Shown here in pieces: positions 16,653 to 21,428 of a DNA stretch of 64,000 bases. The notes below the pieces were generated by a model. The model was not told the DNA's origin. It searched no databases and saw nothing but the letters and a program-made list of their open reading frames with translations. The stretch comes from Shigella phage vB_SboM_Phaginator, in sequence record OL615012. One strand, 5' to 3'. Each line of letters starts with the position of its first letter. The first letter of the stretch is position 1. The translations under genes and the position numbers were made by a program.

Positions 16653-16656
16653 CAAT

Positions 16657-16688
16657 GGGGACCGAAAGGTCCCCATATTTTTTATTTA
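16657..16688. terminator. Intrinsic terminator after gene 54
   Basis: Hairpin ggggacc-gaaa-ggtcccc followed by atattttttattt. Confidence 0.6.
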
Positions 16689-16972
16689 CGGAATGAAATA
16701 AAAGCAGCAACTGAAGCAACTAAACTGTCTTCAATATAAACTTCAATTTTTACCGGAGCTTCTGATTCAAATTTACCTGTTACTACACCCTGAAAAATAC
16801 TTTCAGTCTGTTCTGGCTTTGAAAAATTTTCAGAAGGAAAAATTCCGAACTTTTTATCTGTTCCAAAAATTTTGATAAATTCATCGTAAACTGCTTCATT
16901 AAAAGCATTATCAGCAGGAATAACGCCTTCAACTACAAGTTCTTGACCTAAAAAGCGCAAAGAAGATTTCAT
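16682..16972 (-). CDS. Hypothetical protein (alt.-3-like position)
   Basis: 96-aa ORF with its own early-type promoter and SD GAGGA. Confidence 0.6.
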   Translation of the reverse strand: MKSSLRFLGQELVVEGVIPADNAFNEAVYDEFIKIFGTDKKFGIFPSENFSKPEQTESIFQGVVTGKFESEAPVKIEVYIEDSLVASVAAFISFRK

Positions 16973-17003: not shown

Positions 17004-17033
17004 ACTATAACACAACACGAGGGACTTGTAAAC
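17004..17033 (-). promoter_or_regulatory. Early (sigma-70-type) promoter upstream of the 96-aa ORF
   Basis: Minus strand reads GTTTAC, 18-nt spacer, TATAGT; near-identical to the element upstream of alc. Confidence 0.5.
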
Positions 17034-19090
17034 TACATTTTGAACTTTTTAGACATTCCGTTAATGTTAACCAAAGAAGCTAAGATTTGAGAAACTTCGT
17101 TTTCCTCTTCTTTTGATTCTTCTACAAGGAATTGATTAAATCCAGTCATTGGACGAACTTCACCAGTTTCCATCAAATGGTCGCCATCATATACTGATTC
17201 CTCTAATTGTTCAGAAGGAGGAACGATTGTACCTTCGATTAGATACTTGTTATAAGCAGTTTCTTTCATAAAGTACGTACTTACTTTATTAATCTTCAGT
17301 AAAATTCCACGTGGTAGAATAACTTCAGCTTCTGATGGAAATCCTGATAAATGACCTGGAACGATAACTTTGATTCGCTCAGCTCCTTTAATTACCATAC
17401 CCACGCTAGTTTCAGCATCTTCATTAGCATATGTAGAATGACTACCCATATGCATCAAATCTTCTGCATCAACGGAACCTTCTCCTTCACCAGAAAATAC
17501 TGCGCCGGAATCATCTAGAGCCATATAGTTTTTACCATGCTCACCGAAGATATTTGGTTTAAGCGATGTGGATACGAAGTTCTTGAAATAGAACATTTTG
17601 TTTTCAATGTTATGACGCAAAGTTTTAAAGGTAACTTCTTGACCACGGTAAAGTGTAGTTCCTGGAGGAAGAACTGAACCTTTAGCGAATGCAGAATCAA
17701 GCGTCTCAATATGTTTAATAGCTCGTTCCATATATTCTTCACGGGTAGAATCTGGTTTACCCAAAAGGAACGAGTTCATTTCAACATATGAATCTGCGCA
17801 ATAATCTTCAATTACATCAGATTCAGCTTGAGTTAATCCTTTTGGAGTTACTTCGGTGCTCGCGTATTCATATGCCTGAGCGGCAGATTCATTAATCAAT
17901 TTATAAATGCCATTCATGACAAATTGAATAATAGCTGTCTTTTCATCTGGTGTAGCTTTAGAACCTTTAACTAAATCATTGATAATTTTCTTAATAACAT
18001 CAAAGCTATTAGAAATATTAATGTCAGCAAGATCGCTTAAAATTTTATCAGTTTTATAATCAAAGAATTCTTTATTCTTTAAATATTCTTGAGAACCTTG
18101 ATATGTTATATCGCTCTGCAACTTGATAGATGGATCACGTAAACGCGCATGGGCTAATGCAATATGATTTCGGAAACTTTCTAGTTCATAATCATTAGAT
18201 TTAAAACGAGAAGCACTTCTCATACCACCGATAGCTCCTTTGCTGAAGTTTGAACCAATCTGAATAACGCCAGAGTTCATTGGTCCTTCTGCTTTATATA
18301 CCGGAACTTTAGATTCAAACTCTTGATATTTCTTAGCAGCGAAGCTATCACCCTGAAGTGAAGCATCAACAGTAGAATATTGAGCTTGTGCTGCTAATCG
18401 ACGACTAATTTTAGTTTTCTGAATAACAGCTTGATCAGTGCGCTTATCATTTTCTAAAGCAATAGAAGCAGCAACAGCAACAGCTTTAGGAACAGCATTT
18501 CCTGTTTTAACGTCTACATAAACATCACCAACCTTTGATTCAACTTTTGTGAATAACTCAGTTGAAATAGGAGGTATACCTGGAATGTCTTCTAAATTGG
18601 CATTTTTACGGTAAACCATAATATATGCATATTTCTTATCATAGTCCCAGATTTCCTTTAAAAGAACATACCGACCTGCTCCTTTAGTACGTACTAAACG
18701 GTCAGCAATAACTTGCATTTGACGGGCTGCGCCATTTGTTTTACTTTTTAGTACGCGGAATAGGCATGCATCAATTTTATACTGTTTCATTGTTTGAAGA
18801 GCAGTATCAAAAACAGCATTAATGACGCCAATTGGATTTCCACCCAAGTTTTTAAGCTTGACTAACGATAATTTCTCGTTGACACCTATCATTACGATAT
18901 GCATCATTTTGTCGCCCGGCTTAACGTTTTTATTCGTATCGCCGCCAGAGGTGTATGTACAAAATCTAAATCCAGGAAGCACGCTTTCTTCGCCGACTTG
19001 GATAGCAAAAATTTGTGGTATTTTATGCTTAGGATTTAAGTTAACAACCGGCGCCGAAGCGCCGTCAAATAATTCTGTAATAAGTTCCAT
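17033..19090 (-). CDS. Alt-like ADP-ribosyltransferase, paralog 2
   Basis: 685 aa; N-terminal ~235 aa nearly identical to the adjacent Alt; C-terminus retains the R, STS and ExE ART motifs (TLYRGQ, FVSTSL, SEAEVILPRG). Confidence 0.85.
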   Translation of the reverse strand: MELITELFDGASAPVVNLNPKHKIPQIFAIQVGEESVLPGFRFCTYTSGGDTNKNVKPGDKMMHIVMIGVNEKLSLVKLKNLGGNPIGVINAVFDTALQTMKQYKIDACLFRVLKSKTNGAARQMQVIADRLVRTKGAGRYVLLKEIWDYDKKYAYIMVYRKNANLEDIPGIPPISTELFTKVESKVGDVYVDVKTGNAVPKAVAVAASIALENDKRTDQAVIQKTKISRRLAAQAQYSTVDASLQGDSFAAKKYQEFESKVPVYKAEGPMNSGVIQIGSNFSKGAIGGMRSASRFKSNDYELESFRNHIALAHARLRDPSIKLQSDITYQGSQEYLKNKEFFDYKTDKILSDLADINISNSFDVIKKIINDLVKGSKATPDEKTAIIQFVMNGIYKLINESAAQAYEYASTEVTPKGLTQAESDVIEDYCADSYVEMNSFLLGKPDSTREEYMERAIKHIETLDSAFAKGSVLPPGTTLYRGQEVTFKTLRHNIENKMFYFKNFVSTSLKPNIFGEHGKNYMALDDSGAVFSGEGEGSVDAEDLMHMGSHSTYANEDAETSVGMVIKGAERIKVIVPGHLSGFPSEAEVILPRGILLKINKVSTYFMKETAYNKYLIEGTIVPPSEQLEESVYDGDHLMETGEVRPMTGFNQFLVEESKEEENEVSQILASLVNINGMSKKFKM

Positions 19091-19093
19091 GAT

Positions 19094-21187
19094 TTATCCT
19101 TGAACGAACTTGTAAGGCATGTTTGTAATATCTATGCAAGACGCAATAATTCCAAGAGATGATTCTACTTTCTGTTTAACATTTGATGAAACAAATGATG
19201 CAAAGTCAACTCTGTCTTCTATTTCAATATCATCTGTCATTGCAACTACTTCGCCGGTTTCCATTAAATGGTCTCCGTCATAGATTACCGATTCGGTGAG
19301 TTCTTCTGTGGTCATAACTTCAGCTTGAATGAGTTTTGTATTATTAGATGTTGTTCCGTCATTATTAGAAGCATCAGTTATTTTATTAACTTTGACCATC
19401 AATCCGCGCGGTAGAATAACTTCAGCTTCTGTTGCTATTCCGAGACTTCCTGGATATACAACATTAACTTTATGAGCTCCATCAATTGCCCATCCTATTT
19501 GAACTTTAACGTATTCAGGATTTTCTTTATACGCTCTTATTTCGCTTGGATTAATAGTTATTCCTTCTTCATTTTTATCAACTGTCAATTCATTACGAGC
19601 TTCTGGTTCTAAAAGACCAATACCAGCATGTGTAATTCCAAAACGTCCAAAAATGATAGGAGTTAAAGAAGTAGATACAAAATTTCTGAAATAGAACACT
19701 TTATTTTTAACTAGTGCTTCGTATATAGGAGCAGTCATACTTTGAGCACGATAAACTGTGATGCCTTCCGGTATGCGGTCACCATTTTCAAAAGCTGAAT
19801 CTAAGTTATTTATAGCAGATTCAATTTCTTTTTCACTCATTACATCATATCGTTCTGGATTGTAACGACCTAAAAGAAGATTATTGATGTCAGTATATCC
19901 TGAACCGCAATATTCTCTAATGCCACGCTTTTGTGATGGAGTATATTTAGAACCATCACGGGCAATAGTAATATCAATCATTGGACCAGCACCAATTCCA
20001 GAAAAACTGTAAATCATTCGTTTGAGGAATTTAGTTTTTGCTGCGTTCCAGGAATTTTTAGTTATTTCTTCCCAGACTTCATCTGGTTGTCCTTTACGAG
20101 TTTTATTATGTTTATCAAGCCAATTATCTTTATATTCTTCAAAGAATTTATTAACAGCTGCTGCGTATTTCTCTAAACATTTTATTGAAGTAGTTGGTTC
20201 ATTTTTGATTGCGTTAAAAATTACATCTTTAATTTTTTCTGAAACTTCATCAACCTCACTTTTTGAAAAGAATTTATAGTCATAGTGAAGTTCATTCGCA
20301 GTTCCTTCGGCAATAATTTTTGCTGCCTTAGTTTTAGAAGCTAATGAATTAATTCCAAGCTTCATTTCTTCTGCTTCGGGAATTAAAGGAGCGGTAGCAG
20401 GTTTATTGAAATTAGCTGCGGTAGATTCATACTTCTGGAATAATTCACTTTCAAATCTAGAAGATTCCAATGATTGACTTTGTGCAATTGCTCTACGGGA
20501 AATTTTAACTTTAACGATTACCGCTTGGTCAGAACGTTTATCATTTTCTTGCGCAATAGATGCTGCAATTGCCTCATTTTTAGTTACTTGGGCTCCAGTA
20601 TCTTTATTGATATAAACATCACCGACCTTTGATTCAACTTTAGTAAATAGCTCGGTACTAATTTCCGGAACTCCTGGAATGTCTTCTAGTGATACATTTT
20701 TGCGATGTATAAGAATATATGCATACTTTTTATCGTAATCCCAGAGTTCCTTAAGAAGGACGTATCTGCCACCTGAACGACTACGGATAAGTCTATCAGC
20801 AATAACTTGAATTTGTCGAGCTTGGCCAGCAGTTTTAGACTTAAGAATACGAAGCATACAAGCATCAATTTTATATTGACGCATAGTTTGCATTGCAACA
20901 GTAAAAACTGAATTGATATAATTAATTGGGCTTGGACCAAGACCTTTTAATTTAGCAATTGAACCTTTAGCAGTTAATGTAAAAGGAACAATATGCATCA
21001 TTTTATCGCCCATCTTTAAATCGCGATTAGTATCACCTCCAGATGTATAGGTACATAAACGAAAGCCTGGTTGTTCAATTGCATCATCAACATGAACTGA
21101 AAAAATTTGTGGTATTTTCTTCTTTGGATTTAAGTTTGTAATCGGAAGAGTAGTATCTTCGTCAAATAATTCTGTAATAAGTTCCAT
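19094..21187 (-). CDS. alt: Alt ADP-ribosyltransferase (head-packaged)
   Basis: 697 aa, MELITELFDEDTTLPITNL…; ART motifs TVYRAQ, FVSTSL, TEAEVILPRG. Confidence 0.9.
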   Translation of the reverse strand: MELITELFDEDTTLPITNLNPKKKIPQIFSVHVDDAIEQPGFRLCTYTSGGDTNRDLKMGDKMMHIVPFTLTAKGSIAKLKGLGPSPINYINSVFTVAMQTMRQYKIDACMLRILKSKTAGQARQIQVIADRLIRSRSGGRYVLLKELWDYDKKYAYILIHRKNVSLEDIPGVPEISTELFTKVESKVGDVYINKDTGAQVTKNEAIAASIAQENDKRSDQAVIVKVKISRRAIAQSQSLESSRFESELFQKYESTAANFNKPATAPLIPEAEEMKLGINSLASKTKAAKIIAEGTANELHYDYKFFSKSEVDEVSEKIKDVIFNAIKNEPTTSIKCLEKYAAAVNKFFEEYKDNWLDKHNKTRKGQPDEVWEEITKNSWNAAKTKFLKRMIYSFSGIGAGPMIDITIARDGSKYTPSQKRGIREYCGSGYTDINNLLLGRYNPERYDVMSEKEIESAINNLDSAFENGDRIPEGITVYRAQSMTAPIYEALVKNKVFYFRNFVSTSLTPIIFGRFGITHAGIGLLEPEARNELTVDKNEEGITINPSEIRAYKENPEYVKVQIGWAIDGAHKVNVVYPGSLGIATEAEVILPRGLMVKVNKITDASNNDGTTSNNTKLIQAEVMTTEELTESVIYDGDHLMETGEVVAMTDDIEIEDRVDFASFVSSNVKQKVESSLGIIASCIDITNMPYKFVQG

Positions 21188-21239
21188 TATAGCCTCTCTA
21201 GTGTTTATTCTATTTATAAAATTAAAGGCCCGAAGGCCT

Positions 21240-21428
21240 TTAGTAATCTAGTGGTAAGAGAGTACGATATATTTCAAACTTTGGTCCTTTTTCATAGGCA
21301 TCAAATGTTTCTGTAAATTTATTATAAGCGTATGCATCTACAAATTCGAGAATGACTTGTGATACAGAAGTAGAAACATCTCCACCTTCTTTTTGAGCAA
21401 TGACAATTGTTTCTAAGTAAGCTTTCAT
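21240..21428 (-). CDS. Hypothetical protein
   Basis: 62-aa ORF; ATGA overlap with the stop of gene 30. Confidence 0.55.
   Translation of the reverse strand: MKAYLETIVIAQKEGGDVSTSVSQVILEFVDAYAYNKFTETFDAYEKGPKFEIYRTLLPLDY

Follow-up and report, generated by a model that had tools for sequence, protein, structure and literature searches.

Two diverged Alt-type ADP-ribosyltransferase genes in tandem at the alt locus of Shigella phage vB_SboM_Phaginator

We examined the alt locus in a 64,000-nucleotide stretch of Shigella phage vB_SboM_Phaginator (OL615012), referred to below as the window. The locus carries two adjacent minus-strand genes, alt and a paralogous second gene, both of which encode Alt-type ADP-ribosyltransferases (ARTs). 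As taken from the open reading frame (ORF) list, alt (19094..21187, 697 aa) is a T2/RB32-type allele, and the second gene (17033..19090, 685 aa) is equivalent to the full-length alt.-2 of phage RB32. An initial annotation of this DNA had described two adjacent minus-strand ORFs of 697 and 685 aa separated by 3 nt, and its coordinates are exact. Read directly, the spacer is ATC (19091..19093), lying between the alt stop codon (TAA, 19094..19096) and the ATG of the second gene. The AAGGA ribosome-binding site of the second gene (19097..19101, sequence GTTCAAGGATAAATC-ATG) overlaps the last codons of alt. Unless stated otherwise, all features given here are on the minus strand.

Both proteins have the same layout. 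In alt, a 6-residue N-propeptide (residues 1-6) begins an N-domain of residues 1-238 (20474..21187), which is followed by a variable middle (residues 239-415, 19943..20473), an ART domain (residues 416-632, 19292..19942) and a C-terminal propeptide (residues 633-697). Its catalytic residues are R480 (19748..19750), STS at 505-507 (19667..19675) and EAE at 587-589 (19421..19429). The second protein likewise begins with an N-propeptide (residues 1-6) within an N-domain of residues 1-237 (18380..19090), followed by a middle (residues 238-415, 17846..18379), an ART domain (residues 416-631, 17198..17845) and a C-terminal propeptide (residues 632-685), with catalytic residues R482 (17645..17647), STS at 507-509 (17564..17572) and EAE at 587-589 (17324..17332).

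The two proteins are homologous from end to end (41% identity, E 5e-160). Pfam assigned the exotoxin family PF03496 (ADPrib_exo_Tox) to both, with E 1.6e-37 for alt and 5.8e-20 for the second protein, and both matched PHROG 802, the Alt-like RNA polymerase ADP-ribosyltransferase family (E 3.7e-273 and 6.2e-257, respectively). That both are full-length Alt-type proteins with intact R, S-T-S and E-x-E motifs, as had been proposed, is borne out by locating each motif in each protein. An E-x-E rather than a Q-x-E in the catalytic loop of an ART marks arginine specificity, and both window proteins have E-x-E (E587-A-E589 in each). The family named Tevenvirinae_ADPRT (PF26846) is found on a cluster representative that shares 99% identity with the 685-aa protein; our local Pfam copy did not report PF26846 for either window protein. 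NCBIfam held no family for alt or the second protein, and a sequence search of solved structures with the 685-aa protein gave no match at E ≤ 1. Judged by every feature that can be tested in sequence, both genes belong to the T4 Alt family and to the R-S-E clade of ARTs.

Similarity between the two window proteins is unevenly distributed. Their N-terminal 238 residues are 67.9% identical, which makes the earlier description of this part as "almost identical" an overstatement. At the DNA level the N-terminal parts have a synonymous difference (as a proportion) of 0.68, which is saturated, and the longest identical run between them is the first 27 nt, all other identical runs being short. Recent gene conversion between the two N-domains was considered and rejected on these two grounds. 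Behind this shared module the proteins are strongly diverged, as had been noted: the middle parts (residues 239-415) are 20% identical with many gaps and are effectively unalignable, the ART parts are 36% identical and the C-terminal tails 44%. Differences and indels are largest between STS and ExE, the interval that in C3-like ARTs contains the substrate-recognition loop.

The two-gene array is common. A 4.9-kb region spanning it shares 97-98% DNA identity with TH09, JLBYU22, RB27, RB32, RB3, Sf22 and other Tequatrovirus genomes, and 323 of 546 matching phage records include 80% or more of that region. A search of T-even genomes for the second copy, which had been suggested as a check, found the second gene at 95% protein identity or more in 396 phage records, T2 and RB32 included. 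(GenBank phage records were used for this count because an IMG/VR scan for relatives turned up no more than 5 loci, a number too small for a census.) The alt.-2 genes of RB32, T2 and RB3 and gp95 of Sf22 are the same gene as the 685-aa gene in the window, with 97-99% protein identity and equal length and position, and the window gene differs from them only by strain-level substitutions. Nor is the gene new to annotators, who have recorded the arrangement in hundreds of genomes. The 2006 annotation of RB32 calls it "alt.-2 ... apparent insertion in alt.-2; similar to alt", that of Sf22 calls gp95 "ADP ribosyltransferase, distinct from ... T4 Alt", and RefSeq names both genes "Alt-like RNA polymerase ADP-ribosyltransferase". 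Published comparisons list alt.-1/alt.-2 as paralogous duplications and describe a full-length alt duplicate in phage 44RR (Nolan et al. 2006, PMC1524935), as well as duplicated alt genes in Ac42, JS98 and Bp7 and, in Acinetobacter phage ZZ1, an Alt that is split (Jin et al. 2014, PMC4177764). The pair is therefore not the unusual arrangement that the initial annotation had implied, and the annotation's own condition for calling it ordinary holds in spirit; the two-gene array is the already known, majority state in T4-related coliphages.

T4 itself is different. In its records (NC_000866, OZ209023), alt (682 aa) is followed by alt.-1 (61 aa), alt.-2 (67 aa) and then alt.-3, so the statement that T4 has a single full-length alt was correct, with the second copy represented there only by alt.-1/alt.-2. 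The PHROG families of T4 alt.-1 (23015) and alt.-2 (15247) match residues 1-56 and 62-117, respectively, of the second protein (E 1e-38 to 1e-39). The T4 alt.-1/alt.-2 DNA aligns base for base with the first 348 nt of the second gene, with one A missing from an A-run; this produces the frameshift that splits alt.-1 from alt.-2. Beyond this point the T4 sequence resumes in the final codons of the second gene, with the joint inside the 9-bp sequence CTAAAAAGT. The window gene contains this repeat twice, at codons 114-116 (18743..18751, gene nt 340-348) and in its final codons (17044..17052, gene nt 2039-2047). At the T4 joint, ...GTACTAAAAAGT runs directly into TCAAAATGTAG..., linking the first repeat copy to the second. 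Given the two copies in the window gene and the position of the T4 joint, 1,699 bp have been lost in T4 between direct repeats, a deletion that removes the whole enzyme part of the second gene.

On this alignment, T4 alt.-1/alt.-2 are the frameshifted remnant of a complete paralog, and T4 represents a derived, degenerate state. The T4 GenBank record describes alt.-1 and alt.-2 as the result of an old duplication that involved the initial part of alt; the full-length gene in the window points instead to the remnant of a whole paralog. The T4-type joint is shared by natural isolates, slur03, N2 and Pu-Krd-SF7 among them, and was present in about 6 of 30 rows sampled evenly from 501 matching records.

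Where it is present, the second gene is well conserved. We compared 12 orthologues (from the window, RB32, JLBYU22, Shinka, RB3, Sf22, Kelasse, WL-3, T2, PYPS2T and two IMG/VR contigs), and every one has exactly 685 codons. Mean synonymous divergence (dS) was 0.149 and mean nonsynonymous divergence (dN) 0.0063, with a dN/dS of 0.042 overall and of 0.023, 0.071, 0.039 and 0.019 for the N-domain, middle, ART domain and tail, respectively. The R, STS and ExE motifs and the C-terminal LEE/S site (a slash here marks a cleavage position) were invariant in all 12. For alt the overall dN/dS was 0.056, similar to that of the second gene. The second gene is under purifying selection and is not decaying.

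A third state of the locus is a single Alt gene in which the alt N-domain is fused to the middle, ART domain and tail of the second paralog. It was found in four metagenome proteins (P0003-P0006) that are 89-96% identical to the second protein overall; their N-domains are up to 98% identical to that of alt, and their middle, ART and tail parts are 96-100% identical to those of the second protein. Gene conversion within a two-gene array was considered as the origin of these proteins and rejected, since their contigs (L019-L022) carry one Alt gene, the fused one, between alt.1 and alt.-3. An assembly artefact was likewise rejected, since the same single fused gene is present in cultured phages, namely ECML-134 (NC_025449.1, 120744..122801), SCS4 and Yersinia phage PST (NC_027404.1, 120982..123039). 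The crossovers fall at differing points within the N-domain, which ranges from 76% to 98% alt-like. These genes look like products of unequal recombination between the tandem genes, and the fused genes of ECML-134 and PST indicate that recombination within the N-domain does occur. By the composition of their fused genes, ECML-134, SCS4 and PST have lost the enzyme part of alt and kept that of the second gene, which is the sole Alt enzyme part there. A fourth combination, in Yersinia phage PYPS2T, pairs a T4-type alt with a full-length second gene.

These observations bear on whether the second gene is a redundant duplicate drifting to loss, a pseudogene in waiting without a function of its own. 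The T4 lineage did destroy it, by a frameshift and a 1.7-kb deletion whose joint recurs in other isolates, and Alt is dispensable in the laboratory (PMC9026906). We nevertheless consider this explanation very improbable. A dN/dS of 0.04 at a mean dS of 0.15, 685 intact codons in 12 of 12 genomes, invariant motifs and at least 95% identity across 396 records all argue against drift. So does the behavior of ECML-134, SCS4 and PST, which dropped the enzyme part of alt and retained that of the second gene, and so does the Dhakavirus array described below, whose last gene has the closest enzyme part.

T4 Alt is a prohead core protein, present in about 40 copies, that is injected with the DNA and ADP-ribosylates the alpha subunit of RNA polymerase and other host proteins (PMC9026906, PMC5512222, PMC9503650). 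The prohead protease gp21 trims it at two sites, ITE-6 and LTE-619, and the resulting product is 68.2 kDa (PMC5694885). The mass that we computed for T4 Alt residues 7-619 is also 68.2 kDa, equal to the published value, and our numbering therefore agrees with that of PMC5694885. Both window proteins have gp21 cleavage motifs, with MELITE at the start and, aligned with the C-terminal T4 site, LTE632/S in alt and LEE631/S in the second protein. Cut homologously, alt would be reduced to residues 7-632 (70.1 kDa) and the second protein to residues 7-631 (69.2 kDa). Both C-terminal tails are acidic, with isoelectric points of 4.1 and 4.6. The suggestion that the N-terminus carries the processing signals thus holds for the counterpart of ITE-6, while the second site, the counterpart of LTE-619, lies near the C-terminus.

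One alternative is that the second protein is made late and is not packaged, so that it acts in the producing cell, or that it has a non-catalytic, structural role in the prohead core. In published work Alt figures both as an enzyme and as a protein of the core (PMC11404850), which lends this some appeal. On the other side, the second protein conserves the MELITELFD N-propeptide, encoded by the same first 27 nt as in alt, together with an N-domain that is 68% identical and has a dN/dS of 0.023. Its C-terminal L-x-E/S site is also conserved, and its catalytic motifs are invariant under purifying selection. An unpackaged or structural protein seems improbable to us on this evidence, and packaging and injection of an active enzyme, as in T4 Alt, is the reading that we prefer.

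We used AlphaFold to model the 685-aa protein from a 29-sequence alignment (model numbering is protein numbering minus one). The mean predicted local distance difference test (pLDDT) score was 74, with values mostly of 70-90 over the ART part. In the model, an alpha/beta N-domain extends to about residue 227, a long stretch of helices occupies about 237-470 and the ART domain about 470-627, and the C-terminal tail is disordered from about 629. Foldseek comparison with the PDB gave 48 matches at E ≤ 0.001, and all 50 matches listed were ARTs. The matches to the ART part include Vis, Certhrax, C3, CDTa, VIP2, iota toxin and SpvB, among others, with E values of 2e-6 to 1e-3, target-normalised template modelling (TM) scores of 0.3-0.68 and sequence identities of 14-20%. 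As modeled, the ART domain of the second protein is superposable on solved R-S-E toxins.

Aligning both window proteins to T4 Alt as well as to each other, another check that had been suggested, gave the same architecture throughout, with a patchwork of identities. The window alt is 70% identical to T4 Alt overall. Over residues 1-238 the identity is 99.6%, with a synonymous difference of 0.10; it then falls to 33% in the middle and 66% in the ART part, where the synonymous difference is 0.62, and resumes near the C-terminus. The N-domain of the second protein is 68% identical to that of T4 Alt, its middle 16% and its ART domain 39%. The window alt and T4 alt are mosaic alleles; approximately 316 phage records have the window (T2) type and approximately 211 the T4 type.

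A more distant comparison came from the Dhakavirus PSD9, a Shigella phage with three tandem Alt genes at the same locus (MZ561532.1, 4478..10590). N-domains of paralogs within one phage are 68% identical for the window pair and 63-67% identical for the PSD9 trio, whereas any paralogs compared between the two genera (window versus PSD9) have N-domains that are only 42-46% identical. The enzyme parts behave differently. The window alt and the middle gene of PSD9 are 66% identical in the middle and 84% identical over the last 280 aa, compared with 69% between the last 280 residues of the window alt and T4 Alt. The second window gene and the last gene of PSD9 are 45% identical in the middle and 55% identical over the last 280 aa; this PSD9 gene occupies the same array position as the second window gene and has the enzyme part closest to it. 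As read from these identities, the Alt family is modular, with N-domains clustering according to phage and enzyme parts according to type, even between genera. The locus thus holds three or more enzyme types of old divergence, carried on an N-terminal module that is specific to the lineage. This modularity is what is new in the present analysis.

A broader reading is that the alt locus is a cassette system, in which a lineage-specific head-delivery N-domain would be joined through recombination to exchangeable enzyme modules of at least three ancient types (T4-alt, T2-alt and alt.-2). T2-like phages would then inject two different ARTs and Dhakaviruses three, and the targets would differ among these enzymes and from those of T4 Alt, the only studied enzyme. 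Taken as a whole we hold this tentatively, as possible rather than probable. The delivery fold of the N-domain may also carry non-ART effectors in unrelated myoviruses.

The same comparisons bear on whether both window genes do the same job, that is, whether both modify RNA polymerase alpha as T4 Alt does and the duplication serves dosage or robustness. The two proteins have their architecture and their catalytic and processing motifs in common, and single-gene phages exist with either enzyme type. However, the low identity of the middle and ART parts, with the biggest differences between STS and ExE, argues against a shared job, as does the separate grouping of the two types across genera, which would not be expected of dosage copies. 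A common job is in our view unlikely. Such strong divergence of the middle and ART parts leads us to expect different targets, and it is plausible that the locus supplies two injected ARTs that probably act on different host targets.

The signals around the genes suggest how they are expressed. A stem-loop terminator after alt.1 (21223..21242; 8 pairs, TAAAGGCCTTCGGGCCTTTA, then a T-run, from a terminator scan) lies just upstream of the alt promoter. It is followed by an exact match to the T4-type late promoter box TATAAATA (21211..21218), 23 nt upstream of the alt ATG (21187). TATAAATA is the T4 late promoter consensus. Terminator and promoter-box scans of the junction between alt and the second gene found no terminator or late promoter box. 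Since a terminator and TATAAATA precede alt and neither lies between the genes, the two are most likely co-transcribed late from the upstream promoter. An additional exact TATAAATA occurs within the alt coding region (19807..19814), approximately 700 nt upstream of the second gene, and could be either chance or an internal late promoter.

The flanks of the locus follow the T4 map, with 48, 54 and alt.-3 on one side and alt.1, 30, 30.1 and 30.2 on the other, as identified by Pfam and annotated relatives. Upstream, alt.1 (21240..21428, 62 aa) matches the Pfam family "Phage blade protein" (PF24647, E 1.9e-29), and its homologue is labelled "putative GnsA/GnsB toxin" in one GenBank record. Downstream, alt.-3 (16682..16972, 96 aa) is a DUF5498 protein (PF17602, E 1.4e-64) and not an ART. 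In T4, Alt.-3 mutants with C-terminal extensions evade defence by the CmdTAC system (PMC11618068). In the interval from the stop codon of the second gene to alt.-3, a promoter scan gave a candidate sigma-70/T4-early-like promoter (17004..17032; TTTACA, 17 nt, TATAGT, plus an upstream TG) with 10 of 12 matches, by consensus only. A bidirectional stem-loop terminator (16655..16676, both strands; 9 pairs, 6 of them G-C) lies between gene 54 on the plus strand and alt.-3 on the minus strand. Thus alt.-3 apparently has its own early-type promoter and this terminator.

Taken together, it is likely that the window represents a T2/RB32-like Tequatrovirus with the common two-gene alt locus, working as follows. 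The architecture, motifs, ART fold, purifying selection, commonness and origin of the T4 remnant are directly supported, and from them we infer late co-transcription, packaging, cleavage, injection, enzyme activity and a difference in targets. Both genes would be transcribed late from the TATAAATA promoter upstream of alt, and the second would be translated from its own AAGGA site. Each protein would be made in four parts: a 6-residue N-propeptide; an N-domain of about 230 residues of the Tevenvirinae_ADPRT type, for entry into the prohead core; a helical middle with a C3/VIP2-like, arginine-specific ART domain; and an acidic, disordered C-terminal propeptide. The prohead protease gp21 would trim the ends at ITE6 and at LTE632 (alt) or LEE631 (second protein), leaving products of about 70 and 69 kDa. 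The mature proteins would enter the host with the DNA and mono-ADP-ribosylate host proteins using nicotinamide adenine dinucleotide (NAD), with the two enzymes probably acting on different host targets.

Several points weigh against this account. The window contains 11 matches to TATAAATA, against 9 expected by chance. The ART domain of the second gene scores lower in Pfam than that of alt (72 versus 129 bits). Alt is non-essential in the laboratory (PMC9026906), and the loss of the second gene in T4 and in roughly a fifth of related records means that it is dispensable in some settings. Our search of the literature found no functional or virion-proteomic study of the second paralog.

The array in itself matters little. 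What it changes is the standing of T4, the model strain, which is the degenerate case: knowledge of Alt comes almost entirely from one enzyme type, in a phage without the second. Most T-even phages probably deliver two diverged ARTs at infection. Studies of defence systems and host takeover compare T2, T4 and T6, so unequal Alt repertoires are a possible source of phenotypic differences among them. Natural genetic controls exist, since some phages carry just the first enzyme, some just the second and some both.

Among known systems, T4 ModA and ModB belong to the same R-S-E ART clade as Alt but are short and are not among the proteins that the head injects (PMC5512222). Neither has the Tevenvirinae_ADPRT N-domain, whereas the window proteins are about 690 aa long with an N-domain and propeptides; the window proteins are not Mod-type. 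A tblastn search found no further ART-like (ModA/ModB-like) sequence in the window. The C3-like, VIP2, iota, CDTa and Vis R-S-E toxins have their catalytic fold and motif set in common with the window proteins. The phage proteins differ from these toxins in having an N-terminal delivery domain and protease-removed propeptides instead of secretion signals or binding components.

The closest studied relative is T4 Alt (gpAlt, NP_049811), a head-packaged NAD:arginine mono-ADP-ribosyltransferase. It occupies the same locus, with alt.1/gene 30 on one side and alt.-3/gene 54 on the other, on the same strand and behind the same late promoter box. It has the same four-part architecture, the same R/STS/ExE set and both gp21 motifs, with an N-domain 99.6% identical to that of alt and 68% identical to that of the second protein. 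It differs in its enzyme part, whose type is found in neither window protein, and the targets of T4 Alt therefore cannot simply be transferred to the window proteins. For work with the T4 enzyme, we note that the published dead mutant Alt E577A (PMC11404850) does not fit NP_049811 (NC_000866, 4455..6503), in which E574-M-E576 forms the motif and valine occupies position 577; a shift of one in the numbering of the paper or its construct is the probable cause. Other Tevenvirinae arrays (PSD9, 44RR, JS98, Bp7 and Ac42, and the split Alt in ZZ1) lie at the same locus and repeat the same N-domain and ART design in tandem, and they differ in carrying from 1 to 3 copies.

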